DNA of 64,000 nt from Solirubrobacterales bacterium (GCA_038200435.1 JBBPXY010000015.1:6396-70395); one strand, 5' to 3'. Counted from the stretch's first letter, positions 7,331-50,413 are shown. The notes: generated from the sequence alone by a model not told the origin. Numbers and translations: made by a program.

Positions 7331-7403
7331 GGGCCGGTAGCTCAGTGGCAGAGCGCCGTACTCTTGGTACGGAAGACCCGTGGTTCGATCCCCGGCTGGC
7401 CCA
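7331..7403 (+). tRNA. tRNA-Lys (anticodon CUU), with a one-nucleotide bulge in the T-stem
   Basis: Hand-folded cloverleaf:
- acceptor GGGCCGG/CTGGCCC
- D arm GCTC-AGTGGCA-GAGC
- anticodon arm CCGTA-CTCTTGG-TACGG (CTT)
- T arm CCG(T)GG-TTCGATC-CCCGG
- discriminator A
No CCA is encoded. Confidence 0.75.
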
Positions 7404-9242: not shown

Positions 9243-9311
9243 CCCCGCCGCTGGGAAGAACGAGTAGACGAGACCCTAAGCAGCCGGGCCGACCCGGTCG
9301 ATAAGAGTCAT

Positions 9312-10358
9312 ATGGAGCTGCGTACACGATCATGGCTGTGCCGCGAAGAGCTCGACCGCGAGCGACTTCTCGACATGGAGCAGCGCCTGGGCCCGCGCCG
9401 GGTTGCCTCGATGGCGATTCTCGGCGTCGCGTTGATCGCGACGGGACCTTGGCTTGGCTACTGGACGATCATTCCGCTCCTGGGCTCGGGGTTGTTCTTC
9501 GCTGTCATGAGCCGTGGCACCGCGCAGGCATCTCGCCCCGAGTACCGGATGGCCGCCGCATGGGTCGGCGCCCAGCTCGCCATCGCCGGCAGTGTCGCGC
9601 TGACGGGCGGGCCCCGCAGTCCGGCTGTCAGCTGGCTCGTCATCCCCGTCATCACTCTGGGAGCCCGCTTCAGTGGCCGCGGCGTTTCCGCTGGCGTAGG
9701 TCTGACCGCAGTGCTCATCGGCGCCACGACCCTGGGCGTCGACTCCACGTGGGTTTGGCATCACCCGGCCGACATGATCTTCCCCTTGGCGATGCTGGCC
9801 GCGATGGCCGTGCTGTCGACGGCTCTGATGGGCTCCGACCTCGCGCACCGCAGCGCGTCGATCATCGACCCGCTGACGAGCATGCTCAATCGCGCGTCGC
9901 TAAACGCGCGCGCCGCAGAGCTCACGGCCCAGGCCGGGATCGTGCAGCAGCCGATCGGATTGCTGGTCGGCGATCTCGACTGCTTCAAATCGATCAACGA
10001 CACGCACGGTCACGCGATCGGCGACGCCGTGCTTCGCGACGTGGCCTACCGGATCCGCCGCGAGCTGCACGCCTACGACCTTGCCTACCGCATCGGAGGC
10101 GAGGAGTTCGTCGTGCTCATGCCGGGAGCCGGCGCGGGGCGCTCGGCCGAGGTCGCGGAGAACCTGCGCCTAGCCGTGGCCGCCGAGGAGGTGGCCGGGA
10201 TCGCCGTGACGATGTCGTTCGGCGTGGCCGCCGCTCCCCCAGGAACCTTCGACTACGCCGAGACGTTCGCCGCCGCCGATGCCGCGCTGTACGAGGCGAA
10301 AGCGCGCGGTCGCGACCAGGTTGTAGGCGCGAGCCTGCCGGCCGTCGCTGTCGCCTAA
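9312..10358 (+). CDS. membrane-bound diguanylate cyclase (GGDEF domain)
   Basis: ATG 9312 (MELRTRSW) lies within ORF 8970..10358. About 6 TM helices precede DPLTSMLNRASL ... GDLDCFKSINDTHGH ... RIGGEEFVVL ... ALYEAKARGRDQV. Confidence 0.85.
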   Translation: MELRTRSWLCREELDRERLLDMEQRLGPRRVASMAILGVALIATGPWLGYWTIIPLLGSGLFFAVMSRGTAQASRPEYRMAAAWVGAQLAIAGSVALTGGPRSPAVSWLVIPVITLGARFSGRGVSAGVGLTAVLIGATTLGVDSTWVWHHPADMIFPLAMLAAMAVLSTALMGSDLAHRSASIIDPLTSMLNRASLNARAAELTAQAGIVQQPIGLLVGDLDCFKSINDTHGHAIGDAVLRDVAYRIRRELHAYDLAYRIGGEEFVVLMPGAGAGRSAEVAENLRLAVAAEEVAGIAVTMSFGVAAAPPGTFDYAETFAAADAALYEAKARGRDQVVGASLPAVAVA

Positions 10359-12413: not shown

Positions 12414-12487
12414 GGCTCCGTAGCTCAGCTGGTTAGAGCGCACGGCTCATAATCGTGAGGTCCCTGGTTCGAGTCCAGGCGGAGCTA
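12414..12487 (+). tRNA. tRNA-Met (anticodon CAU; elongator-like, though an Ile2/lysidine type cannot be excluded by eye)
   Basis: Cloverleaf:
- acceptor GGCTCCG/CGGAGCT (G1-U72 wobble)
- D arm GCTC-AGCTGGTTA-GAGC
- anticodon arm CACGG-CTCATAA-TCGTG
- T arm CCTGG-TTCGAGT-CCAGG
- discriminator A. Confidence 0.9.
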
Positions 12488-24678: not shown

Positions 24679-25476
24679 GTGCCGCGCCTTGGCGTCCTCG
24701 GTCACCCGGTCGCGCACAGCCGCTCTCCGGCTATGCACCGGGCCGCCTTCGTGGCGCTCGGCATGGACCGGGAGTGGAGATACCAGCGCCTGCCCGTCCC
24801 CCCGGAGCTGTTCAAGGAGACGGTCCGCGCGCTGCCGGCGGCCGGCTTCGTCGGCGCAAACGTGACGATCCCCCCCAAGGAGGCGGCCCTCGCTCTTGCC
24901 GATGAGGCGACGCCGGAAGCCCGTGCGATCGGCGCCGCCAACACCCTCAGCTTCACCCCCGACGGCCGGATCCACGCGGCCAACACCGACGCGCCGGGTC
25001 TGATCGCCGCCCTGCCGGAGCCTCCGGCCGGCCGCAGCGCACTCGTGCTGGGCGCCGGGGGCAGCGCCCGCGCGGTCGCCTGGGCCCTGCGTCACGCCGG
25101 TGCCGGAGAGGTGTCGGTGTGGAATCGCACGCCCGAGCGCGCACGCGCGTTGGCGGACTCGCTCGGGGTGCGGGCGGTCGGCCGTCTGGAGCCCGCCGAT
25201 CTGCTCGTCAACTGCACGTCTGTGGGCTTGGATGGGGAGGGCGGGGAACTCAAGATCGGCCCGCTGGGTGCCGATGAGCTCCTCGGGTTCAACAGCGTGA
25301 TCGATCTTGTCTACGGCACGACGGAGACGGCGCTCGTCTCGACGGCGCGCCGTCTCGGCGTGCCCGCAGTAGATGGGCTCGAGGTGCTCGTCCGGCAGGG
25401 CGCAGCCTCCTTCGAGCTGTGGACAGGCCGCACGCCGCCGCTCGATGCCATGCGGGCCGGGGCCCGGGACTCATGA
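24679..25476 (+). CDS. aroE: shikimate dehydrogenase
   Basis: Motifs HSRSPAMHRAAF, GANVTIPPKEAA, NTDAPG, VLGAGGSARAV. Confidence 0.9.
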   Translation: MPRLGVLGHPVAHSRSPAMHRAAFVALGMDREWRYQRLPVPPELFKETVRALPAAGFVGANVTIPPKEAALALADEATPEARAIGAANTLSFTPDGRIHAANTDAPGLIAALPEPPAGRSALVLGAGGSARAVAWALRHAGAGEVSVWNRTPERARALADSLGVRAVGRLEPADLLVNCTSVGLDGEGGELKIGPLGADELLGFNSVIDLVYGTTETALVSTARRLGVPAVDGLEVLVRQGAASFELWTGRTPPLDAMRAGARDS

Positions 25477-25639
25477 GCGACCCTTCCGATTCGAATCTCC
25501 ACCATCTGCGGCCCGTTCTCTCGGGGGAGCCGGCGCCGACGGATGGGGGCGCCACGCTCTCCGCCGGCCCTCCGACGGTCTTGGGCGGCGCCCTGATCCG
25601 GTTGCACTTCCGCCGGCACCTTTCGGTTCGGAGTCGGCG

Positions 25640-27577
25640 GTGCCTCCGCCTGCGCCGTTCAGTGAGCCCGAGGCGGTCGTGACCTCACCGTATGGCGAGT
25701 CGGAGTCGGCGACGGCTCTCCCCGCAGATCCCGTTGTGACGCCGCCTGCTGCGGACTACGGAGCACCGGATCCCGTGGCTACTCAGCCGGCCGCTCCGCC
25801 CGCAGTGATCACGCCGGCGCCGGTGTCCTACGGTGGCTCAGAGGCCGTGGCCTACGAGCCGGAAGCCGCCGATTGGGATGGCCTGACGCCGCCCTCACGC
25901 CGCGGCGGCTCGGGTCGGTTCCTGACCGACGTCCTCGTCGATCTCGGGTTCGTCGATAGCGCGCGGGTGGAGAGCGCCGTCGAGTCGGCCCGCCTCTCGG
26001 GCCGGCCGCCCGAGAGGATGCTGCTCGAGGCAGGAGCCATCACCCCCGACCAGCTCGCGCGAGGGACAGCTGAGCGCTTTGGCCTCGACCACGTCGATCT
26101 CAACACCTACAACGTCGACATGGCAGCCGCGAACCTCGTCAACACCGCGGCGGCGCGGCGCTACGAGGCCGTTCCCATCTCGTTGATCGGGAGCACCGCT
26201 GTGCTGGTCGCGATGGCCGATCCCTCCAACGTCCTCGCGGTCGACGATATCGCGATGCTCACGAGTCTCGAGGTGCGCCCGGCGGTCGCCTCGAGCGAGG
26301 ACATCGCCGGGCTCGTGATGCGACTCAACCGCTTCGAGGACGCGGTTCAGGAGGCTTACGAAGAGGAGCGCGACACCGAGAGCACCGCCGAGGTAGTCGA
26401 CCTGCAGGAGTCCGCCGACGACGCCCCGGTCGTCAAGCTCGTGCACTCGATCATCGCTCAGGCGGTCGAACGAGGCGCCTCCGACATCCACTTCGAGCCG
26501 GACGGCACCGACATGCGCGTGCGTCTGCGCATCGACGGCGTCATGTCGACCACCACCACGGTTCCCCGCCGCATGGTGGGCGGAGTGGTCTCGCGCATGA
26601 AGATCATGTCGGAGCTTGACATCGCCGAGCGCCGCATGCCCCAGGACGGCCGTATGGGGCTGAACGTCGACCACCGTCACATCGACATCCGCGTTGTCAC
26701 CCTGCCGAGCGTTCACGGAGAGTCCGTGGTCTTGAGGATCCTGGACAAGGACGCGGTGGTCCTCGAGCTCGACAAGCTGGGCATGCAGGACGAGGAGCGC
26801 GACCGCTTCCGGCGTGCCTTCAAGCGCTCTCACGGCGCTGTCCTCGTCACGGGGCCGACGGGCTCGGGCAAGTCGACCACGCTCTACGGGGCGCTCGGCG
26901 AGCTCAACACGCCCGAGAAGAACATCATCACGATCGAGGATCCGGTCGAATTCGAGGTCGACGGCGTCACCCAGGTGCAGGTGAACCCGCGCACGGGCCT
27001 GACGTTCGCCCAGGGCCTGCGGTCGATGATGCGCGCCGACCCCGACATCCTCATGGTCGGAGAGATCCGCGACCGCGAGACCGCGCAGATCGCGGTGGAA
27101 GGCGCCCTCACGGGCCACCTCGTCCTCTCCACGCTCCACACCAACGACGCACCGACGGCCATGACGCGGCTGACCGAGATGGGCATCGAGCCCTTCCTGG
27201 TGGCCTCCGCGGTCGACTGTGTCGTCGCCCAGCGCCTGGCCCGCACCCTGTGCCCGATGTGCAAGCGCCGAGTCATCATCTCTGCCGAGGTGCTGCGCGA
27301 CCACGGATTCAACGCCCAGCTCGACATCGAGGCCTACGAGCCCGCGGGCTGCGGGCGTTGCGGAGGCATGGGCTACAAGGGCCGGGTTGGGGTGTATGAG
27401 GTGATGCACGTCGACGACGAGATCCGCTCGATGATCCTGCGCCGCGCCGCCTCCGACGAGATCGCCGCCGCCGCCGCGCGCGCCGGGATGCGCCGCCTGC
27501 GCGAGGACGGCCTCGACAAGGTCAAGAAGGGCCAGACGTCGCTTGCGGAGATCGCCCGGGTGACCGGAGCTTCCTGA
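25640..27577 (+). CDS. pilB: type IV pilus assembly ATPase PilB (GspE family); true start uncertain
   Basis: ORF 25373..27577. It contains a T2SSE_N domain, Walker A GPTGSGKSTTL, GEIRD and a CPMC...CGRCGG tetracysteine. GTG 25640 is preceded by GGAG at 25629-25632. An upstream ATG at 25473 in another frame may be the real start, separated by a 1-nt indel (see findings). Confidence 0.9.
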   Translation: MPPPAPFSEPEAVVTSPYGESESATALPADPVVTPPAADYGAPDPVATQPAAPPAVITPAPVSYGGSEAVAYEPEAADWDGLTPPSRRGGSGRFLTDVLVDLGFVDSARVESAVESARLSGRPPERMLLEAGAITPDQLARGTAERFGLDHVDLNTYNVDMAAANLVNTAAARRYEAVPISLIGSTAVLVAMADPSNVLAVDDIAMLTSLEVRPAVASSEDIAGLVMRLNRFEDAVQEAYEEERDTESTAEVVDLQESADDAPVVKLVHSIIAQAVERGASDIHFEPDGTDMRVRLRIDGVMSTTTTVPRRMVGGVVSRMKIMSELDIAERRMPQDGRMGLNVDHRHIDIRVVTLPSVHGESVVLRILDKDAVVLELDKLGMQDEERDRFRRAFKRSHGAVLVTGPTGSGKSTTLYGALGELNTPEKNIITIEDPVEFEVDGVTQVQVNPRTGLTFAQGLRSMMRADPDILMVGEIRDRETAQIAVEGALTGHLVLSTLHTNDAPTAMTRLTEMGIEPFLVASAVDCVVAQRLARTLCPMCKRRVIISAEVLRDHGFNAQLDIEAYEPAGCGRCGGMGYKGRVGVYEVMHVDDEIRSMILRRAASDEIAAAAARAGMRRLREDGLDKVKKGQTSLAEIARVTGAS

Positions 27578-27847: not shown

Positions 27848-28930
27848 GTGATGAACATCGACTTCGCCGACATCCTCCTCGAGGTAATCGATCGCCGGGC
27901 CTCCGACCTGCACCTCACCGCAGGCTCTCCGCCGATGGTCCGCACCCGCGGCCGCCTGACTGCGCTCGAGGGATTCCCGCTCCTGACTCCCGCCGACACA
28001 CGCGAGATCGTCTACTCGATCCTCTCGAATGATCAGCGCCAGCGGCTGGAGACCAACTGGCAGCTCGACTTCGCCTACGCAATCCCGGGCCGGGCCCGTT
28101 TTCGCGTCAACGCCTACTTCCAGCGCGCCGCGTTGAGCGCCGCCTTCCGGCTGATCCCGTTCGAGCTCACCCCGCTCGAGGAGCTCGGCCTGCCGCCCGC
28201 GGTCATCGACTTCGCCAAACGCCCGCGGGGCATCGTCCTCGTCACCGGCCCGACGGGCTCGGGCAAGTCGACCACGCTCGCCTCGATCGTCGACCTGATC
28301 AACGAGACGCGCGAGGAGCACATCCTCACCATCGAGGACCCGATCGAGTTCCTGCACAACCACAAGCGCTGCATCGTCAACCAGCGCGAGATCGGCTCTG
28401 ACGCCCCCAGCTTCGCCGCCGGCCTCAAGGCCGCCCTGCGGCAGGATCCCGACGTGATCCTCGTCGGCGAGATGCGCGACGTCGAGACGATCGGCACCGC
28501 CATCACGGCGGCGGAAACGGGCCACCTCGTCTTCGCGACCCTGCACACGCAGGACACGCCGCAGACGATCGACCGCATCATCGACGTCTTCCCGTCTGAC
28601 CAGCAGTCGCAGATCCGCGTGCAGCTGGCGGTCGCCCTCCAGGGCATCGTCACCCAGCAGCTTCTCCCGACCGCCGACGGCGCCGGGCGCTGCGTGGCGG
28701 CCGAGGTCATGGTGCCCACCCCCGCGGTGCGCAACCTGATCCGCGAGGGCAAGACCCACCAGCTCTACTCGGTGCTGCAGACCGGCGGGGCCCAGGGCAT
28801 GCAGACCATGGACGCCGCTCTCGTTGGCCTGGTGCGCTCGGGCAAGATCACCCGCCAGATGGCCGAGGCCCGGTCGACGACGCCCGACGAGCTACGGCGA
28901 CTGCTCGGGTTCACCCCGATGGCGGCCTAG
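27848..28930 (+). CDS. pilT: twitching-motility retraction ATPase PilT
   Basis: Motifs ASDLHLTAGSPPMVR, GPTGSGKSTTL, ILVGEMRD, GHLVFATLHT. Length 360 aa. Confidence 0.93.
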   Translation: MMNIDFADILLEVIDRRASDLHLTAGSPPMVRTRGRLTALEGFPLLTPADTREIVYSILSNDQRQRLETNWQLDFAYAIPGRARFRVNAYFQRAALSAAFRLIPFELTPLEELGLPPAVIDFAKRPRGIVLVTGPTGSGKSTTLASIVDLINETREEHILTIEDPIEFLHNHKRCIVNQREIGSDAPSFAAGLKAALRQDPDVILVGEMRDVETIGTAITAAETGHLVFATLHTQDTPQTIDRIIDVFPSDQQSQIRVQLAVALQGIVTQQLLPTADGAGRCVAAEVMVPTPAVRNLIREGKTHQLYSVLQTGGAQGMQTMDAALVGLVRSGKITRQMAEARSTTPDELRRLLGFTPMAA

Positions 28931-28939
28931 GAACCGGCT

Positions 28940-30151
28940 GTGTCTGCATCGTTCGTCTTCAAGGCCGTCGACCTGGCCGGGATGCCGGCCCGGGGCGAGG
29001 TCGAGGCCGACTCCAAGTCGGCGGTCGCCGAGCAGCTGAAGTTGCGCGGCCTCATCGTCGTCGACATCCAGGCCAAGCACTCATCGAAGGAGCTCAACCT
29101 CGAGCTGTTCTCGCGGGTGAAGCCCGTCGAGCTCACGATCATGAGCCGGCAGCTCGCGACGATGGTCTCCTCGGGCATGACCTTGCTCCGCGCGCTGTAC
29201 GTGCTCGAGGCTCAGACCGAGGGCAAGAAGCTCAAGGAGACGCTGACCAAGGTCCGCAAGGACGTCGAGGCCGGACTGCTCTTCTCCGACTCCCTGGCCC
29301 GCCACCCCAAGGTCTTCAACCCCCTCTACATCGCGATGGTCCGCGCCGGCGAGTCGGGAGGCCTGCTCGAGAGCGCGCTCGAACGGGTCGCCGACCAGCT
29401 CGAGAAGGACGCCGCGCTGCGCCGCCAGGTGAAGTCGGCGATGGTCTACCCGAGCGTCGTCATCTCCTTCGCCGCCATCGTCCTGCTGGCCCTCGTGGCG
29501 TTCCTGGTGCCGATCTTCGCCAAGATCTTCAAGGACTTCGGTGGCAAGCTCCCTGCCCTCTCGCAGTTCACGGTTGACCTGTCGCACGGCCTGACGACCT
29601 ACTGGTTCGTCTACCTCCTGTGCGTCGTCGGTGTGGTGGTCGCGTTCTCGCGCTGGAAGAAGTCCTCGTGGGGCCGCCCGCAGTGGGACTCGTTCCGGCT
29701 GCGGGTCCCGTTCAAGATCGGTGACATCGTGCAGAAGGTCGCTCTCGCGCGCTGGGCCCGTACGCTCTCTTCGCTCACCACCGCGGGTGTACCCATCTTG
29801 CAGGCACTGGAGATCACGGGGCAGACGGCGGGCAACAACGTCGTCGAGAAGGTCATGGCCTCGGTGATCGACTCCGTCAAGGCAGGTGGAACGATCGCCG
29901 CCCCACTCAAGGACGCTCCCGTCTTCCCCGGCATGGTGCAGCACATGGTTGCCGTCGGCGAGGAAACCGGCGCGCTCGACCAGATGCTTTCGAAGATCGC
30001 GGACTTCTACGAGGACGAGGTCGCCGCGGCGGTGAAGTCGCTCACCTCCATCCTCGAGCCCGTGATGATCGTGGTCGTCGGGGCCGTCGTCGGGTTCATC
30101 GTCGTCTCGATGTACCTCCCGCTCTTCAAGATCTACGACCAGATCAAGTAG
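28940..30151 (+). CDS. pilC: type IV pilus platform protein PilC (T2SS F family)
   Basis: 403 aa with a duplicated T2SSF domain, three TM helices and the ending YLPLFKIYDQI. Confidence 0.92.
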   Translation: MSASFVFKAVDLAGMPARGEVEADSKSAVAEQLKLRGLIVVDIQAKHSSKELNLELFSRVKPVELTIMSRQLATMVSSGMTLLRALYVLEAQTEGKKLKETLTKVRKDVEAGLLFSDSLARHPKVFNPLYIAMVRAGESGGLLESALERVADQLEKDAALRRQVKSAMVYPSVVISFAAIVLLALVAFLVPIFAKIFKDFGGKLPALSQFTVDLSHGLTTYWFVYLLCVVGVVVAFSRWKKSSWGRPQWDSFRLRVPFKIGDIVQKVALARWARTLSSLTTAGVPILQALEITGQTAGNNVVEKVMASVIDSVKAGGTIAAPLKDAPVFPGMVQHMVAVGEETGALDQMLSKIADFYEDEVAAAVKSLTSILEPVMIVVVGAVVGFIVVSMYLPLFKIYDQIK

Positions 30152-30184: not shown

Positions 30185-30373
30185 ATGGCCGCAGATAACG
30201 AAGCGGGCGCGGGCGCCCCGGCCGGCGAGCCCGCTCCCTGCTCCCCCTGCCGTGGTACCGGGAAGCTCATCTCCGGGCTGGGCGGCGCTCCCAGCGAAGT
30301 CATCTGCCCGTGGTGTGAAGGCTCTGGCGTACGCGCCCCCGGGTACGACGCGCAGGCTGCCCGCCGCGCCTGA
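30185..30373 (+). CDS. 62-aa DnaJ-type zinc-finger miniprotein (two CxxCxGxG motifs)
   Basis: The motifs CSPCRGTG and CPWCEGSG are separated by 16 residues. Third codon positions are GC-rich. It sits between pilC and the pilA leader. Confidence 0.55.
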   Translation: MAADNEAGAGAPAGEPAPCSPCRGTGKLISGLGGAPSEVICPWCEGSGVRAPGYDAQAARRA

Positions 30374-30446
30374 TCGAAGAGAACTTCCGCTGTGCCCTCA
30401 AGTGTTGGGCTGAGGGGTCGATATATGGGTTGTCCAGCACTTCTTA

Positions 30447-30527
30447 GGTGCCAAAGGCAAACCGTTCGTGAGGGCGGGACGCAAAGCCACGGATCTCCTT
30501 GAAAGGGGAGGAAGCCGGGTTGCCACC
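30447..30527 (+). promoter_or_regulatory. c-di-GMP-I (GEMM) riboswitch aptamer candidate in the pilA leader
   Basis: The sequence GGUGCCAAAGGCAAACCGUUCGUGAGGGCGGGACGCAAAGCCACGG...UUGAAAGGGGAGGAAGCCGGGUUGCCACC contains the blocks GGCAAACC, a GNRA-capped hairpin (GUGA), GGGACGCAAAGCC and the closing CCGGGUU.CC, as in the Vc2 aptamer as I remember it. The P1 helix is GGUG/CACC. Confidence 0.8.
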
Positions 30528-30559
30528 AGGGTTAGACGCGCTGTCGAGCCCGACGGCAT

Positions 30560-30612
30560 GGTTCTCCTAGGAGCTGGCGATCAATCCCATAGATCCGTTC
30601 CTAGGAGGAACA
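30560..30612 (+). promoter_or_regulatory. putative expression platform: anti-SD / SD pairing ahead of pilA
   Basis: GGTTCTCCTAGGA (30560-30572) is the near-exact complement, with one bulge, of TCCTAGGAGGAAC within GTTCCTAGGAGGAAC (30597-30611). That segment contains the AGGAGG Shine-Dalgarno 5 nt before ATG 30613. Confidence 0.55.
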
Positions 30613-31056
30613 ATGCTCACCAAGATCCGTAACCGCGCCGAGGACGAAAAGGGCTTCACCCTGATCGAGCTCCTCGTCGTGATCCTGATCATCGGCATCC
30701 TTGCCGCTATCGCCATTCCGTCGTTCATCAACCAGCGGGGCAAGGGGCAGGACGCCGCCGCCAAGTCTGACGTCAAGACGGCGCAGACCGCGATCGAGAC
30801 GTTCTACACCGACAACCAGAACTACACGACCGACAAGGCTGGCCTCGTGGCCATCGAGCCCGCTCTGACGAGCGTCAACGTGACGGTCACCCCTGGTACC
30901 GACAGCTACTCACTGTCCGTGCCTTCGAAGTCCGGCGCGCAGGGCGGCGGCACGTTCACCATCGTCCGGGCGACCAGCGGTGCGGTGACACGTACCTGCA
31001 CCAACGCCAACAAGGGCGGCTGCAAGGCGGCCGACGCCGACGGGAACATGTGGTAG
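30613..31056 (+). CDS. pilA: major type IV pilin
   Basis: The prepilin leader is MLTKIRNRAEDEKG, with cleavage before FTLIELLVVILIIGILAAIAIPSF (Glu at +5). There is a C-terminal Cys pair (C...C). Strong SD. Confidence 0.93.
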   Translation: MLTKIRNRAEDEKGFTLIELLVVILIIGILAAIAIPSFINQRGKGQDAAAKSDVKTAQTAIETFYTDNQNYTTDKAGLVAIEPALTSVNVTVTPGTDSYSLSVPSKSGAQGGGTFTIVRATSGAVTRTCTNANKGGCKAADADGNMW

Positions 31057-31154: not shown

Positions 31155-31577
31155 ATGTGCGCACTTCGAGCGGCCGATACCAGGAGCGTGCTTCCATCGC
31201 TCCGCCAGTCCTTCTCCGCCGGCTCCGTCATCCTGACCCTCGCCGCCGGCTTCTCACTCGTCTCCACCGAGCACGCGCTCGGACTCGACGGCACCGCCCA
31301 GCGCGACGCGCGGGCCGGCCTGACGGCGATGGAGGAGTTCTACATCCGCCACCAGACCTACAACGCCGATCCCACGCAGCTGGCGCAGACCGACCCGAGA
31401 CTTCAGGGCGCCAACGTCCTCACCGCCAGCGGGACTGCCGAGACTTACGTGGTGTCTGTCACGTCGCGATCTCCGCAGCACACGGTCTTTACGCTCACCC
31501 GGGGCGCCAACGGCACCGTGACCCGCGGCTGCGACACGCCCGGTCGTGGCGGGTGCCCGCTCGCGGGCACGTGGTAG
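31155..31577 (+). CDS. degenerate pilin paralog (PilA-like globular domain, N-terminal helix shortened)
   Basis: The C-terminal 90 aa align by eye with PilA: TAMEEFYIRHQTYNAD...TVFTLTRGANGTVTRGCDTPGRGGC against TAIETFYTDNQNYTTD...GTFTIVRATSGAVTRTCTNANKGGC. The N-terminus AGFSLVSTEH lacks about 20 residues of the hydrophobic helix and the Glu at +5. Confidence 0.5.
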   Translation: MCALRAADTRSVLPSLRQSFSAGSVILTLAAGFSLVSTEHALGLDGTAQRDARAGLTAMEEFYIRHQTYNADPTQLAQTDPRLQGANVLTASGTAETYVVSVTSRSPQHTVFTLTRGANGTVTRGCDTPGRGGCPLAGTW

Positions 31578-40049: not shown

Positions 40050-40082
40050 CGTCCTGCGCGCGCCGTAGGTTCCTTTCAAGGC

Positions 40083-40832
40083 ATGTTTGTCGCGCTCACC
40101 GCCCTGCTCGGGCTGATCATCGGCTCCTTTCTCAACGTGGTGGTCTACCGGCTGCCGCGCGGTGAGTCGCTCTCGCACCCCGCGTCGCGCTGCCCTGGGT
40201 GCGGCACGCCGGTCAAGCCCTTCGACAACGTACCGGTGATCTCGTGGCTCGTGCTGCGCGGCCGCTGCCGCACGTGCCGCACGCCGATCTCCGCGCGCTA
40301 CCCGCTTGTCGAGGCCGGCACGGCGGTCCTCGCGGTCGCGGTGGTGCTCCTCAGGGGCGCCGATCGCGACGCGTGGCTCGGCCTTGCGTTGGTGCTCGTG
40401 CTCGTGCCCGTGGCGCTCATCGATCTCGACCACCGCATCATCCCCAACAAGATCACGCTGCCCGCGGCGATCGCGGCGATCGCGATTGGCGCGCTCACGC
40501 GGCCGGAGCACCTGATCGAGCAGCTCATCGCCGGTGCGGCGGCCGGCGGGTTCCTGCTGCTCGCGGCGCTCGCCTACCCGCGGGGGATGGGGATGGGCGA
40601 CGTTAAGCTCGCGGGCGTGATGGGGCTGTTCCTGGGGCGTGACGTGGCGCCCGCAATGCTCGTCGCGCTGTTGTCGGGCACGATCGTCGGCGCGGTGATC
40701 ATCGCCCGCAAAGGCACCAAGGAGGGCCGGAAGACCGCGGTTCCGTTCGGCCCGTTCCTGGCTCTCGGCGGCTTGGTGGGCCTGCTCGCAGGCGCGCCGA
40801 TCGTCACCTGGTACCTGGACACGTTCGTTTAA
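40083..40832 (+). CDS. pilD: prepilin peptidase (A24 family)
   Basis: Motifs IGSFLNVVVYRLP, CPGCG...CRTCR, DLDHRIIPN, GMGDVKL. About 7 TM helices. Confidence 0.92.
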   Translation: MFVALTALLGLIIGSFLNVVVYRLPRGESLSHPASRCPGCGTPVKPFDNVPVISWLVLRGRCRTCRTPISARYPLVEAGTAVLAVAVVLLRGADRDAWLGLALVLVLVPVALIDLDHRIIPNKITLPAAIAAIAIGALTRPEHLIEQLIAGAAAGGFLLLAALAYPRGMGMGDVKLAGVMGLFLGRDVAPAMLVALLSGTIVGAVIIARKGTKEGRKTAVPFGPFLALGGLVGLLAGAPIVTWYLDTFV

Positions 40833-43776: not shown

Positions 43777-44675
43777 AGTTCTTCCGCAACGTCTATGAGG
43801 ATCTGGTCGAGCGCAAGCTGCTTCCGCTCGCCGTACTGCTCATCCTCGCCCTGGTGGCGGTTCCGCTGACGCTCTCGAAGTCGATGCCGATTCCGCCGGC
43901 CGTCGCGGCGTCGAGCGCGGCGCCGGCGCTTGATGTCCCGTCGGCTGTCCCGGCCGTGAGCCTCTCCTCGCCCGACAGCTCGAGCCGCCTCGACCACCTG
44001 GGCGCCCTGAACCCGTTCGAGCAGCGCCACAAGCAGCGCGTGCAGCCGCTCAAGCCAGCGAGCGCGCCGACCACGACCGCCGCCGCCCAGCCCGCCCAGC
44101 CGAGCTCACCCGCGGCGTCGTCCTCGGGTGCCTCGATCGGAGCGGCGGCGTCATCTCCCTCGGCGTCCTCTCCCTCGTCGTCCGGTCCCGTCTCCTCGCC
44201 GTCGCCCAGCGCCGGCCCGTCCCCGCACAGCTCGCGCCCGCCTGCCCGTCATACGGTCAGCTCGCTGCAGGTGCGCTTCGGTCCGCTCGGGCATACGGGA
44301 GGCCGCCATGGGATCGATCGCCTCGCGCCGCTTCCCGACAGCGAAAGCGCGGCCATCATCTACCTGGGGATGCTGCGCGATCACAAGACCGCTTCCTTCC
44401 TCGTTTCCTCCGATGCGCACGCTGAAGGTGACGGGCGCTGCCTGCCCAGTCCCAGCAACTGCCAGAAGGTCTACCTGCGCGCCGGTCAGACCGAGTTCTT
44501 CGATCAGACGAACTCGCACGGTGGGGTCACTCAGTATCAGCTCGATGTCATCGGCGTGGCGAAGCGGGCCGTGGCCTCGGCGCGGACTGCCCGCCGGATG
44601 AGCGCCCGCGTCTCGCGGCGCGGCCAGCGGCTCGAGCGTCACTCCGCCGCCTTCCGCGCGCCCGCTCCCCGCTAG
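43773..44675 (+). CDS. membrane-anchored PilP-like protein (last gene of the pilus locus)
   Basis: A TM helix (LLPLAVLLILALVAVPL), an NPF motif (GALNPFEQ), a long Ser/Pro/Ala linker and a C-terminal beta-rich segment IIYLGMLRDHKTASFLVSSD...YQLDVIGV. Confidence 0.5.
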   Translation: MKFFRNVYEDLVERKLLPLAVLLILALVAVPLTLSKSMPIPPAVAASSAAPALDVPSAVPAVSLSSPDSSSRLDHLGALNPFEQRHKQRVQPLKPASAPTTTAAAQPAQPSSPAASSSGASIGAAASSPSASSPSSSGPVSSPSPSAGPSPHSSRPPARHTVSSLQVRFGPLGHTGGRHGIDRLAPLPDSESAAIIYLGMLRDHKTASFLVSSDAHAEGDGRCLPSPSNCQKVYLRAGQTEFFDQTNSHGGVTQYQLDVIGVAKRAVASARTARRMSARVSRRGQRLERHSAAFRAPAPR

Positions 44676-44707
44676 AGGGCCGGCGTCCGCCTAACCTGTG
44701 GCGCCGC

Positions 44708-45874
44708 ATGGCGCTTCGTCTCATCACGGCCGGTGAATCGCACGGTCCCGGCCTTACCTGCCTCGTGGAGGGCCTGCCGGCCGGCCTCGAGCTCGACCGC
44801 GCGCTGATCGACCGTGACCTCGGCCGCCGGCAGCTCGGCCACGGTCGCGGCGGGCGCATGAAGATCGAGACCGACGCCGCCGAGGTGACTTCTGGCGTCC
44901 GGCACGGCTTGACCCTCGGTTCGCCGGTCGCCCTGCGGGTGATCAATCGCGACTACGCCAACTGGGAAGAGCGGATGAACCCCTGGCCGGTCGAGGCCGA
45001 CGTGCCCGAGGTGCACCTGCCGCGCCCCGGTCACGCTGACCTCGTCGGCACCCAGAAGTACGGCTTCAGCGACGTGCGCAACGTGCTCGAGCGCGCGAGC
45101 GCGCGCGAGACGGCCGCGCGGGTAGCCGGGGGCGCGCTGGCGCGTGCCTTCCTGCGCGCGCTCGGGGTCCAGGTCTTCTCCCACGTCATCCAGATCACGT
45201 CGGTGCGGGCGCCGGTGCGCGAGCCCTTGTCTCCGGCGGACTTCGCCGAGGTCGACGCTTCGCCGGTGCGCTGCCTCGACCCCGAGGCGAGTGCGGCGAT
45301 GGTTCAGGAGATCAACGTCCTGCGCAAGCGCAACGAGTCCCTCGGTGGCGTCTTCGAGGTGCGCGCCTTCGGATTGGTGCCCGGCCTCGGCTCCCACGTG
45401 TCCTGGGAGGAGCGGCTCGACGGCCTGCTCGGGCAGGCGATCCTCTCGATTCAGGCCATGAAGGCGGTGGGCATCGGCGACGGGTTCGACCTCGCCGGCG
45501 TCCCGGGCTCGGAGGCCCACGACGAGATCTTCTGGACCGACGAGCGCGGCTACTTCCGTGAGACCAACCGCTCGGGAGGGGTAGAGGGAGGCATGACCAC
45601 CGGCGAGCCGCTGATCGTCAGGGCGGCCATGAAGCCGCTGCCCACGCTGACCAAGCCGCTGCGCTCGGTCGACATCGCCACCAAGGAGCCCGCTCAGGCG
45701 CTTCGCGAGCGCACCGACTCGGCGACGATCCCCGCCGCCGGGGTCGTGGGAGAGGCGATGGTCGCGCTCGTTCTCGCCGACGCCTACCGGCGCAAGTTCG
45801 GCGGCGACCACATCGACGACGTCAAGACCTCGGTGGCCGCCTACCGCGAGCGCATCGGCTGGCCCGAGCGGTGA
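44708..45874 (+). CDS. aroC: chorismate synthase
   Basis: Motifs TAGESHGPGL, RPGHADL, ERASARETAARV, GGMTTGEP. Confidence 0.93.
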   Translation: MALRLITAGESHGPGLTCLVEGLPAGLELDRALIDRDLGRRQLGHGRGGRMKIETDAAEVTSGVRHGLTLGSPVALRVINRDYANWEERMNPWPVEADVPEVHLPRPGHADLVGTQKYGFSDVRNVLERASARETAARVAGGALARAFLRALGVQVFSHVIQITSVRAPVREPLSPADFAEVDASPVRCLDPEASAAMVQEINVLRKRNESLGGVFEVRAFGLVPGLGSHVSWEERLDGLLGQAILSIQAMKAVGIGDGFDLAGVPGSEAHDEIFWTDERGYFRETNRSGGVEGGMTTGEPLIVRAAMKPLPTLTKPLRSVDIATKEPAQALRERTDSATIPAAGVVGEAMVALVLADAYRRKFGGDHIDDVKTSVAAYRERIGWPER

Positions 45875-47391
45875 GCCCCAAGCTCGTGCTCGTCGGCTTC
45901 ATGGGCGCCGGCAAGAGCACGGCGGCCTCGCGCGCCGCGGAGTACCTCGGCGAGCAGTCGGCTGACACCGACGAGATCCTGCGCCGCCGCTTTGGCACGT
46001 CGATCGACTCCTTCTTCGCCGAGCGCGGCGAGGCTGCGTTCCGGGAGGAGGAGGAGGCAGTCGTCGTCGAGGCGCTCGAGGCGAGTGGCCCGGCGATCGT
46101 CGCCCTCGGGGGCGGCGCGCTCGGCTCCGAGCGCGTCCGCGCCGCGCTCGCCGATCACCGCGTGGTGTACCTCGACGTCGATCCCGAGCACGCCTGGCAA
46201 CGCATCAGGCGGGGCGACCGGCCTCTCGCGCGGGACCGTGCCAGGTTCGCGCAGCTGCACGCCGAACGCGAGCCGGTCTACGAGGCCAGCGCCGATGTGA
46301 TCGTGCACGCCGAGCGGCTGCTGAGCGCCGAGGAATGGCTGAGCGCCGCGCGCTCCCTCGACTACGCGCCCCCACGCACGCGGCTTCTGCTGGCCTCGAG
46401 CCGGTCGGGCTCCTACCCGGTCTACGTGGGCAACGGCCTCGTCGCGGCCGGGTTCTACCCCTTCGACGCGCGCCGCTTCCTCGTCAGCGACGGCATCGTG
46501 GCCCGCCTGTACGCAGACCACCTCGAGCCGCTGGCGGGCCGCGTGGCGATCATGCCCGGAGAGCAGTCCAAGACGATCGCCCACGCGGAGATCGTCTGGA
46601 CCGAGCTCGCCCGCCAGGGCGCGACGCGCGACGATCACGTCGTTGCCCTCGGGGGAGGAGTCGTCGGCGACCTCGCCGGGTTCTGCGCGGCGACCTACCA
46701 GCGCGGCGTGGGAGTGGTGCAGGTGCCGACGACACTGGTCGCTCAGGTCGACTCGGCCTACGGCGGCAAGACCGGAGTCGACCTGCCCGAGGCCAAGAAC
46801 TACGTCGGGGCCTACCACCAGCCGGAGGCGGTGCTGGTCGATCCGGCGACGCTCGAGACGCTCCCCCCAGCCGAGCGCTCGGCGGGCTACGCCGAAGTGT
46901 TGAAGACAGCGCTGATCGCCGGCGGCCGCCTCTGGGAGCGTGTGCGGGGCGGCGCGGTCGACGACGAGCTGACCGTCCTCGCGTGCGCGCGCACGAAGCT
47001 GCGCGTGGTGGCCGAGGACGAGCGCGACGGCGGCCGGCGGCAGATCCTGAACCTCGGCCACACGGTGGCCCACGCGATCGAGTCGGTGACGGGCTATGCC
47101 CGCTACCGCCACGGCGAGGCGGTCGCGCTGGGGCTGCTCGCTGCTCTGCGGCTCTCCGAGCAGCCCGAGCTGCGCGCCGAGGTGGCGGAGCTGCTCGCCG
47201 CGAACGGGCTGCCCACGCGCCTCGAAGATGCCCCGGTCGACGCCGTGATCTCCGCGACCGAGCGCGACAAGAAGCGGCGGGGAGCCGCTCCCGTCCCCTT
47301 CGTGCTCGTGGCCGCCGCGGGCGATGTGCGCTACGGCCGGCCCGTGCCGGAACCCGCCCTGCGCGCGGCCGTGGAAGAGTTGACCCGATGA
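45871..47391 (+). CDS. aroB: bifunctional shikimate kinase / 3-dehydroquinate synthase
   Basis: The N-terminus has VLVGFMGAGKST (AroK Walker A). The C-terminal ~360 aa have LGGGVVGDLAGF, VDSAYGGKTGV and GHTVAHAIE (AroB). Confidence 0.88.
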   Translation: MSPKLVLVGFMGAGKSTAASRAAEYLGEQSADTDEILRRRFGTSIDSFFAERGEAAFREEEEAVVVEALEASGPAIVALGGGALGSERVRAALADHRVVYLDVDPEHAWQRIRRGDRPLARDRARFAQLHAEREPVYEASADVIVHAERLLSAEEWLSAARSLDYAPPRTRLLLASSRSGSYPVYVGNGLVAAGFYPFDARRFLVSDGIVARLYADHLEPLAGRVAIMPGEQSKTIAHAEIVWTELARQGATRDDHVVALGGGVVGDLAGFCAATYQRGVGVVQVPTTLVAQVDSAYGGKTGVDLPEAKNYVGAYHQPEAVLVDPATLETLPPAERSAGYAEVLKTALIAGGRLWERVRGGAVDDELTVLACARTKLRVVAEDERDGGRRQILNLGHTVAHAIESVTGYARYRHGEAVALGLLAALRLSEQPELRAEVAELLAANGLPTRLEDAPVDAVISATERDKKRRGAAPVPFVLVAAAGDVRYGRPVPEPALRAAVEELTR

Positions 47392-48904: not shown

Positions 48905-48969
48905 CGAGGTGAGTTGGCACCGAAACTTCTTGATTTCGGGCGAGTTCATGCAAGAGTTGGAACCAACAG

Positions 48970-49120
48970 TTGCCGAATCCGCGCCGGCCTGACCGACGCG
49001 GAACGGGGGAACCATTGCCGGCTCCATCACGGGCCGGCGGGGGCGAATCGGCCGCAGCACCGGGCCGGAGCGAGATCGAACTTCGATCGCGCCAGCCCGT
49101 CAGCTCACCTCGTAGGCGCA
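48970..49120 (+). promoter_or_regulatory. ydaO/yuaA-type c-di-AMP riboswitch candidate
   Basis: The conserved blocks occur in order: UGCCGAAUC, ACGGGGGAACCA, GGGGCGAAUC, and the signature 3' end CCCGUCAGCUCACCUCGUAGGCG. The P1 helix UGCC/GGCG closes the element. Confidence 0.8.
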
Positions 49121-49144
49121 CCAGAGCGAGGACTTTCAAACGAG

Positions 49145-50413
49145 ATGAACGCCCCCAAGGTTCACCGCGCTTCCGCGACCCGTGCCCTCGCGCTCCTCCT
49201 GCTGCTCGCCGTGGCGGTCTTCGCCGGCACCGTTCCCGCCAACGGCGCGAGCTCCGGGGGAGCAGGGCCCACGACGGACCCGTCCACCTCGCCCGCGGAT
49301 CCGCCTTCGCCACCGCCGGCCCCCGCGGCAGGCTCGCCCTTCGACTCGCGTGGCATGTGGATCTGGGAGCTTCCCCGCTCGAGCGGGGGCAGCATCTCGG
49401 CGATCATCTCGAAGGCCCGTCACTACGGCGTGGGCACTCTTTTCATCAAGAGCTCCGACGGGCGCAACCTGTGGAGCCAGTTCACCTCTCGGCGCGTGGC
49501 TGCGCTCCGCCGCGCCGGCCTGAAGGTCTGCGCCTGGCAGTACGTCTACGGCACCTATCCCGACACGGAGGCCGCCCTGGGGGCGAAGGCCAAGGCGCTC
49601 GGAGCCCAGTGCCTCGTGATCGACGCCGAGGGCGAGTACGAGGGCAAGTACGCCGCCGCCCAGCGCTACATCCATGTGCTGCGCAGCAAGACGGGGGCGG
49701 CCTATCCGGTCGCGCTCGCCGGCTTCCCCTACAACGACTACCACCCGGCTTATCCCTTGTCGGTCTTCCTTGGCCCGGGCGCAGCGCAGTACAACGTGCC
49801 GCAGATGTACTGGAAGGCGATCGGTACCTCGGTCGACCGCGTCTACAGCCACACGTACCGCAACAACAGACCCTATGGGCGGGCTATCGCGCCGCTCGGC
49901 CAGAGCTACGACCGGGTGCCCGGGCGTGATATCGACCGCTTCCGTCTGCTGGCCCGGAGCTACAGGGCCAAGAACGTCTCCTGGTGGGATTGGCAGGAGG
50001 CCCGGCTGTCGGATTTCCACGAGATCGCCCGCGGGCTTCGTAGCCTCAAAGGCTTCCGGCCCGACAACACCTACGCCACGCTCGCCCGTGGCGCGCGGGG
50101 TGACCTCGTCGTCTGGGCCCAGCAGCACCTGCGCACGGCCGGCCAGGCCCTTCCCGTCGACGGCGTTTACGGTTCGCGGACGGCTGCCGCGGTTCGAGCT
50201 TTCCGCGCCGCGCACGGACTGCGCGCCGGTTCGACGATCGACACGCCGACGTGGCAGAGCCTCTTGCGCTTCCGGGCCGCCGCGGTGCGCTGGAGCCACG
50301 CTCCCTCCGGCGCGCGCAGCGCGAGCGCCGCCGGCGGTTCGTCGAGGGATTCGGCACCGCTCTCGGCCCACGACCGCCCGCGCCGCACCGAGATCCCCCG
50401 CAAGCGTCACTAG
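49145..50413 (+). CDS. secreted glycoside-hydrolase-like protein with C-terminal peptidoglycan-binding domain
   Basis: ATG 49145 lies inside ORF 48914..50413. The signal peptide is ALALLLLLAVAVFAGTVPANGA. A barrel-like region follows (GMWIWEL...LFIKSSDG...CAWQYVYG...VIDAEGEY). The PG_binding_1-like segment is GARGDLVVWAQQHLRTAGQALPVDGVYGSRTAAAVRAFR. Confidence 0.7.
   Translation: MNAPKVHRASATRALALLLLLAVAVFAGTVPANGASSGGAGPTTDPSTSPADPPSPPPAPAAGSPFDSRGMWIWELPRSSGGSISAIISKARHYGVGTLFIKSSDGRNLWSQFTSRRVAALRRAGLKVCAWQYVYGTYPDTEAALGAKAKALGAQCLVIDAEGEYEGKYAAAQRYIHVLRSKTGAAYPVALAGFPYNDYHPAYPLSVFLGPGAAQYNVPQMYWKAIGTSVDRVYSHTYRNNRPYGRAIAPLGQSYDRVPGRDIDRFRLLARSYRAKNVSWWDWQEARLSDFHEIARGLRSLKGFRPDNTYATLARGARGDLVVWAQQHLRTAGQALPVDGVYGSRTAAAVRAFRAAHGLRAGSTIDTPTWQSLLRFRAAAVRWSHAPSGARSASAAGGSSRDSAPLSAHDRPRRTEIPRKRH

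Follow-up and report, generated by a model that had tools for sequence, protein, structure and literature searches.

A probable class I c-di-GMP riboswitch in the leader of a type IV major pilin gene from Thermoleophilia

In a 64,000-nucleotide stretch of DNA from a Solirubrobacterales bacterium (the window), a preliminary description had placed a candidate class I c-di-GMP (GEMM) riboswitch in front of the major pilin gene. The locus raises two questions. Firstly, is the element a genuine member of the class I family, with c-di-GMP as its ligand? Secondly, how might ligand binding be coupled to synthesis of the pilin, and in which direction? The explanation that we favour as a whole, and regard as probable rather than secure, is a functional class I riboswitch in the pilin 5' UTR, transcribed from a WhiG-type promoter and acting as a translational OFF switch through two alternative folds.

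Aptamer identity and expected ligand

The elements of the aptamer are as follows.

30447..30528, + strand: c-di-GMP-I aptamer (Rfam RF03167, 62.1 bits; our own covariance model, 92.7 bits)
30447-50 (GGUG) / 30524-27 (CACC), + strand: helix P1, blocks read in the sequence
30453-30463, + strand: block AAAGGCAAACC, read in the sequence
30457-58/30481-82 plus 30462-67/30472-77, + strand: helix P2, with the GNRA loop GUGA as its cap
30462-30477, + strand: the P2 hairpin CCGUUC-GUGA-GGGCGG, read in the sequence
30476-30488, + strand: block GGGACGCAAAGCC, read in the sequence
30485-98/30506-21, + strand: helix P3, a CUCC/GGAG hairpin
preceding the P1 GGUG/CACC closure, + strand: block CCGGGUUGCC, read in the sequence
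30456 (G20), 30483 (A47) and 30523 (C92), + strand: equivalents of the ligand-contact bases, a canonical triad

All of the sequence blocks named in the preliminary description are present, in the order and at the positions given there, and its assignment of the element to the class I c-di-GMP (GEMM) aptamers is borne out by the Rfam threshold together with strong covariation. With cmscan, RF03167 (c-di-GMP-I-GGC) was the top Rfam model, matching 30447-30528 over its full length with 62.1 bits (gathering score 59) and an E-value of 2.9e-12 for the entire window, or 1.2e-14 for a 261-nt region. A second family of the c-di-GMP-I clan (CL00126) also scored above its own gathering score and was outranked in clan competition. 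Membership of RF01051 was set at a threshold of 35 bits. The P2 loop, GUGA, is of the GNRA type; in the type 1 architecture such a tetraloop docks into a receptor in P3. We consider it very likely that 30447-30528 is a class I c-di-GMP riboswitch aptamer. As an aptamer it is unremarkable within a class that is already known. It shares with RF01051 and with Vc2, the structural reference from Vibrio cholerae, the three-helix architecture, the P2 GNRA loop, AAAGGCAAACC, GGGACGCAAAGCC and G20/A47/C92. It differs from Vc2 in its short P3 and slightly better RF03167 score, in its host lineage, the Thermoleophilia, and in an expression platform that is lineage-specific.

Related loci were fetched by way of PilC (genomes), a four-pilin alignment (metagenomes) and exact protein look-up. 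Our own covariance model, built from 30 aptamers, was run over the 165 loci so obtained from Thermoleophilia genomes and soil metagenomes and gave 65 aptamer copies, all of them on the coding strand. Every complete copy (64/64) is followed by a type IV pilin gene on the same strand, 49-165 nt to its 3' side, and an aptamer lies upstream of 35 of the 86 related pilin genes that have at least 230 nt of upstream sequence. Five loci (L013, L104, L038, L036 and L032) contain tandem riboswitch-pilin units, two per locus. A class I element on a pilin gene had been called unusual in the preliminary description; with 65 copies it is instead the norm among a large group of pilin genes in Thermoleophilia. 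Motility and pilus genes have been classical GEMM targets since the original description of the motif (PMC7288161). Our literature search found no paper linking riboswitches to Thermoleophilia, and the lineage-wide pairing of class I aptamers with their major pilin genes is new, as a descriptive finding.

The proposed helices are upheld by these relatives. In a plain MAFFT alignment of 30 sequences (A3), 95.1% of the cells are paired and 11 of the 24 pairs show double changes; in the model alignment of 65 sequences (A4) the values are 97.1% and 19/24. None of 500 shuffles equalled the pairing values in A3 or in A4, and sliding the 3' partners by 1-3 columns makes the pairing collapse to 29-48%. 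P1 itself covaries, from GGUG/CACC to GGCG/CGCC, and the GNRA loop on P2 is found in 63 of 65 copies. When RNAalifold was applied to whole leaders, the aptamer helices alone were recovered.

The bases G20, A47 and C92 are ligand contacts (PMC11218506, PMC7288161), and across the family they are present in 65/65, 64/65 and 63/64 copies, respectively, with the full canonical triad in 63 of 65. One copy, L155:2333-2416, has U at the C92 position. Since the binding site of the window is canonical at G20/A47/C92, c-di-GMP would be the expected ligand. A change of G20 to A has been linked to cGAMP recognition (PMC7288161); G stands at 30456, as it does in 65/65 copies, and a c-AMP-GMP (GEMM-Ib) riboswitch was ruled out.

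The name of the best-scoring model suggests another reading, in which the element is a specificity variant of the Rfam c-di-GMP-I-GGC class that senses a ligand other than c-di-GMP. RF03167 is, after all, the best model for the window (62.1 bits) and for nine of the 13 relatives with Rfam matches (61-66 bits), and the peripheral scaffold of the variant is the same as that of the window. We take 'GGC', in the variant attributed to Weinberg et al. 2017, to mean the bases at positions 20/47/92, going by the RF03167 consensus. In that consensus, GGGACGCGAA, a G follows GGGACGC, whereas the window, GGGACGCAAA, has A (30483) at this position; the variant-defining G is absent from the window and from 64/65 family members, all of which have A. 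At the other two positions, G20 and C92, the window is canonical too, without G20A. The four remaining relatives (L087, L099, L092 and L082) match best to RF01051 (48-61 bits). The lone copy with G at the A47 position and so a true GGC-type site, L060:5631-5714 from a Solirubrobacterales MAG, falls below both Rfam thresholds. On this evidence a change of ligand is highly improbable, and RF03167 comes out a few bits ahead, probably on account of a short P3 scaffold that its seed has in common with this lineage. The Rfam GGC model collects many sequences with canonical sites, a further descriptive finding that is new, and caution is needed when altered specificity is inferred from the label.

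Promoter and genomic setting

The aptamer is set within a type IV pilus cluster, of which the following features are relevant.

25373-27577, + strand: pilB, type IV pilus cluster
27848-28930: pilT, type IV pilus cluster
28940-30151: pilC, type IV pilus cluster
30185-30373, + strand: 62-aa zinc-finger ORF between pilC and the pilin promoter
30398..30401, + strand: -35-like element TCAA of sigma-WhiG/FliA type, from leader comparison
30417..30424, + strand: -10-like element GTCGATAT of WhiG/FliA type, taking in most of GATATAT
30613..31056, + strand: regulated gene, type IV major pilin (pilA), 147 aa, with the class III signal peptide ...KGFTLIELLVV
40050-40832: prepilin peptidase gene pilD, type IV pilus cluster

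As had been described, the aptamer is directly 5' of the major pilin gene, with the Shine-Dalgarno sequence (SD) at 30603-08 and the ATG at 30613, and the spacer is locally AT-richer (GC 0.58 at 30400-30700 vs 0.65-0.74 nearby). The pilin (30613-31056) matches Pfam N_methyl (4e-9) and ComP_DUS and has thousands of homologues named PilA. The cluster also contains pilM, pilN and additional genes for pilin-like and PKD-repeat proteins. PilC shares 65-69% identity with MAG proteins of Solirubrobacteraceae, Baekduia and Conexibacteraceae, which puts the organism in the class Thermoleophilia (Actinomycetota). The whole cluster sits between aroE and aroC/aroK-aroB (24679-25476; 44432-47391) of the shikimate pathway.

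Several neighbouring features deserve mention in their own right. The 62-aa ORF (30185-30373), for which Pfam yields sub-threshold matches only, contains a pair of CxxCxGxG repeats of the DnaJ zinc-finger type and ends in a conserved ...DAQ tail. In 33 of the fetched loci this ORF immediately precedes the promoter or riboswitch. A pilin-like ORF at 31155-31577 (+) directly follows pilA; it has a weak ComP_DUS match and no recognisable N-terminal methylation motif. At its 5' end, 31173-31180, there is a match to GCCGATAC without a convincing -35. PilB (25373-27577) carries the Pfam MshEN N-terminal domain, and a simple regex search of the protein for the c-di-GMP-binding MshEN motif gave no match. 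Elsewhere in the window are a c-di-AMP (ydaO/yuaA) riboswitch at 48961-49135 (+; 47.3 bits vs a gathering score of 38), directly 5' of an ORF at ~49145-50413 with a peptidoglycan-binding domain, and two tRNA genes (7331-7403 and 12414-12487, +).

The preliminary description had suggested GATATAT (30420-26) as a -10 element. It does lie within a promoter, but not one of sigma-70 type, for which there was no match in 30380-30700; it forms the 3' part of the WhiG/FliA-type GTCGATAT (30417-24). The arrangement TCAA-N15-GTCGATAT agrees with the pattern that we applied for WhiG/FliA (sigma-28 type) promoters (-35 TAAA, spacer ~15-16 nt, -10 GCCGATAA), and TAAA and GCCGATAA are the -35 and -10 of the published WhiG consensus (PMC8325347). 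Common to 41 related leaders is T(T/A/C)AAG-N16-GCCGATA(C/A)-N6-7-TGCCAG, with the consensus TtAAg-N16-GCCGATAc. Transcription would start at about 30431-30433, which would place the GCCAG-type motif at the extreme 5' end of the mRNA. About 8 nt 5' of the WhiG-type -35 a further motif, (T)AGCACAAACGTCCA, is conserved (L013, L084, L119, L134, L139, L153 and others; in the window, 30386-30395, only weakly); in some loci it is the inverted repeat TGGAC-N-GTCCA, and it may be the binding site of a regulator.

In Rubrobacter, RsiG-(c-di-GMP)-WhiG controls type IV pilus and DGC/PDE genes (Schumacher et al.; PMC8325347), and the same study reports homologues of RsiG from Conexibacter, Patulibacter and Thermoleophilum. 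A Pfam scan of 31 distinct ORFs of the window turned up no sigma factor gene. The membrane GGDEF cyclase noted earlier at 9312-10358 was confirmed, in that the ORF ending at 10358 has a GGDEF domain. A second WhiG-type match, CTAAG-N16-GTCGATAA at 9276-9304 (+), ends 7 nt before the ATG of this gene (9312), so that the mRNA would have almost no leader; WhiG promoters likewise precede DGC/PDE genes in Rubrobacter (PMC8325347). By analogy with Rubrobacter, sequestration of WhiG by RsiG-c-di-GMP would lower transcription from promoters of this type at high c-di-GMP, and an OFF riboswitch would then act in the same direction.

Expression platform and direction of control

Four segments of the leader outside the aptamer enter into the argument.

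30430..30446, + strand: 5' leader F, with CCAGC 30434-38 as the P0 5' strand and UCUUA 30442-46 extending the pairing with X
30529..30551, + strand: linker hairpin H1 (GGGUU...AGCCC), in minimum-energy folds
30558..30580, + strand: segment X, AUGGUUCUCCUAGGAGCUGGCGA, comprising the anti-SD (30560-72) and the P0 3' strand GCUGG (30573-77)
30597..30615, + strand: segment Y, the ribosome binding site, comprising GUUCCU, AGGAGG (SD 30603-08), AACA and the ATG (30613-15)

An SD-sequestering helix had been proposed for this leader. GGTTCTCCTAGGA (30560-72) is indeed complementary to TCCTAGGAGGAAC (30599-611), and their pairing is the dominant helix of the minimum-energy fold. The X:Y duplex has a predicted energy of -23.4 kcal/mol, where shuffles average -9.8 and 0/300 are as good, and it pairs 6/6 bases of the SD. 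The helix is present in the window, far above chance; conservation, with partial covariation, extends to the window's own sub-clade only. The homologue of H1, GGCUCG/CGAGCC, varies to GACUCG/CGAGUC in L120 (compared by eye).

The platform is not uniform across the riboswitch family. The 15 leaders of the window's sub-clade, A1, have the consensus ...GGACC-NN-GGGAUCUGGCG...CGAUCCC-AGGAGG-AUC-AUG, and in them X pairs either with the sequences on both sides of the SD or across the SD itself. Nine of these leaders, which differ in sequence, give p<0.05 for X:Y against shuffles (the window, L119, L120, L122, L124, L134, L153, L158 and L162). When A1 was aligned with MAFFT, pairing in the two helices came to 73.9%, six pairs had double changes and 12 of 500 shuffles were as good, and X:Y pairing peaks clearly at zero slide; these column counts lend moderate support to an SD helix in A1. 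In the larger sub-clade, A2, X:Y pairing is no better than chance and the leaders contain a local SD hairpin. RNAalifold applied to the platform alone gave a weak local SD hairpin and nothing more.

In more distant relatives (L033, L035 and L037, and the L031/32/36/40/62/65 group) the platform is a terminator hairpin with a U tract behind it, and for L035 a scanner confirmed a terminator with a 17-bp stem and T-rich tail. The 5' strand of each terminator has its complement in the aptamer, whether in the core GGCAAACC, in P2 or in the 3' strand of P1, so that the unliganded fold would be an anti-terminator and the folded aptamer would permit termination. For the window leader itself an intrinsic terminator was rejected, none being detected.

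How might the aptamer communicate with the SD, a point on which the preliminary description offered neither a route nor a direction? In equilibrium folding, SD accessibility in the window and most relatives was the same whether the aptamer was enforced, unconstrained or had P1 unpaired. A different picture emerges from truncated transcripts, cut before the SD region. In the minimum-energy fold of such an RNA, X is joined in nearly every case to the leader and to the 5' strand of P1: the GCCAG... leader, GGU of P1 and GCCA of J1/2 pair with CUGGC, (G)ACC and ...UGGC... of X. For the window the predicted F:X helix joins 30430-30453 to 30559-30580 and takes in the anti-SD. X thus carries a mimic of the P1 3' strand, and the mimic tracks P1, with GGCG matched by CGCC in L027 (by eye). 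In the full window leader the leader:X fold is predicted at -73.7 kcal/mol and the aptamer fold at -75.2, a gap of 1.5. The two folds are nearly isoenergetic, mutually exclusive and share the P1 5' strand and J1/2, and this fits what a switch requires. Imposing the ligand-free fold on the window leaves the SD 0.52 unpaired, and imposing the aptamer fold leaves it 0.07 unpaired. Of 44 leaders compared in this way, 14 have the more open ribosome binding site in the ligand-free fold and one has it in the aptamer fold. In these models the predicted coupling to the SD appears only with the leader:X fold imposed, as taken from the predicted structures of truncated RNAs.

The GCCAG/CUGGC complementarity (P0) between leader and X is kept in about 40 of 44 leaders. 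Its covariation test was not significant (83.2% paired vs 81.8% in shuffles) and is uninformative for or against P0, because both strands are almost invariant. The spacing from leader to X differs between sub-clades in a concatenated leader+X alignment (A6). The mean P0 probability in truncated RNAs is 0.94 when free, 0.80 with the aptamer enforced and 0.90 with P1 unpaired. We rejected the idea that the aptamer abolishes P0 in these RNAs; there is a weak trend only, and P0 is predicted alongside the enforced aptamer.

The scheme that we infer, covering the start site, the binding of ligand, the F:X helix and the sense of regulation, is as follows. The pilin mRNA would start at about 30431, behind the sigma-WhiG/FliA-type promoter, and its aptamer, with the canonical G20/A47/C92 pocket, would bind c-di-GMP. 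Without ligand, 30430-30453 (leader, P1 5' strand and J1/2) would pair with X (30559-30580), keeping the anti-SD off the ribosome binding site, and the pilin would be translated. Capture of c-di-GMP would lock P1 and the binding core and free X to pair with the SD/start region (30599-30611 and beyond), blocking initiation. An OFF switch is favoured by the fold accessibilities of the window together with the terminator-type relatives; here we make the assumption that the OFF logic of those relatives carries over to an SD-type platform. To this leader-mediated OFF mechanism we would give slightly better than an even chance.

The same riboswitch could instead be an ON switch, with c-di-GMP exposing the SD and raising pilin synthesis. 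Activation of pilin expression by c-di-GMP has precedent (Bordeleau 2015, as listed in PMC6916266). In the window the leader sequence CUUCUUAGG (30440-48), two bases of which belong to the P1 5' strand, shows complementarity to the SD region as well, so that formation of P1 could in principle free the SD from it, and for eight of the 44 leaders, mostly of A2 type, the models make the SD itself more accessible in the aptamer fold. The leader:SD complementarity is, however, specific to the window and not conserved. The window SD is predicted to be far less accessible in the aptamer fold than in the alternative, the 14 leaders against one given above for ribosome-binding-site openness point the same way, and the terminator-type relatives are built as OFF switches. 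We consider an ON switch unlikely.

A third reading accepts that the aptamer binds c-di-GMP and makes X:Y a constitutive element of translation or stability, with control exerted elsewhere, through Rho-dependent termination or 5'-end mRNA decay. The equilibrium models form the helix whatever the state of the aptamer, the window leader has no intrinsic terminator, and the predicted pairing of the mRNA 5' end in P0 could affect decay that depends on this end. Against this stand the near-isoenergetic folds that share the P1 5' strand and J1/2, and the classical terminator platforms of the relatives, which couple directly to the aptamer. Constitutive sequestration seems to us less probable still than an ON switch, and a leader-mediated OFF switch remains the reading that we prefer.

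Known switches and the biology of Thermoleophilia

The Cdi2_4 element of Clostridioides difficile is a c-di-GMP-II riboswitch upstream of pilA1 that acts as a transcriptional ON switch. The window element is like it in being a c-di-GMP riboswitch directly 5' of a type IV major pilin gene and differs from it in being class I and, by prediction, a translational and probably an OFF switch; our models favour this direction, opposite to that of the pilA1 precedent. In Bc1 of Bacillus thuringiensis a class I aptamer with an intrinsic-terminator platform inhibits the downstream gene (PMC11218506). The distant relatives L033/L035/L037 are Bc1-like, whereas the window platform lacks a terminator and would act on the ribosome binding site.

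The closest parallel in setting is the Rubrobacter (RsiG)2-(c-di-GMP)2-WhiG switch, which likewise connects c-di-GMP with type IV pilus genes in deep-branching Actinobacteria and shares the promoter consensus (-35 TAAA, -10 GCCGATAA) with the window leaders (PMC8325347). That system is a protein sigma/anti-sigma switch at transcription initiation, for which no riboswitch has been reported (PMC8325347), whereas the window has an RNA sensor 3' of such a promoter. New, in a descriptive sense, are the placement of the riboswitch behind a WhiG-type promoter and a platform in which the 5' end of the mRNA seems to take part.

Thermoleophilia are abundant in soil and rarely cultured, and to our knowledge A-type type IV pili are almost unstudied in Actinobacteria. 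A conserved c-di-GMP riboswitch on the pilin gene offers a direct and testable way into the question of when they produce pili. Taken with the promoter of WhiG type, its presence suggests that a protein c-di-GMP switch of the Rubrobacter type is backed by an RNA sensor on the same mRNA. A tentative extension, to which we give somewhat less than an even chance, is a two-tier lock on the Thermoleophilia pilin with both tiers acting in the same direction: a WhiG promoter silenced by RsiG-c-di-GMP, and a riboswitch that uses the mRNA 5' end as an anti-anti-SD strand. If this were true, the riboswitch would stop translation, or in relatives transcription, at high c-di-GMP, and the diguanylate cyclase gene at 9312-10358, apparently under the same promoter type, would close a feedback loop.
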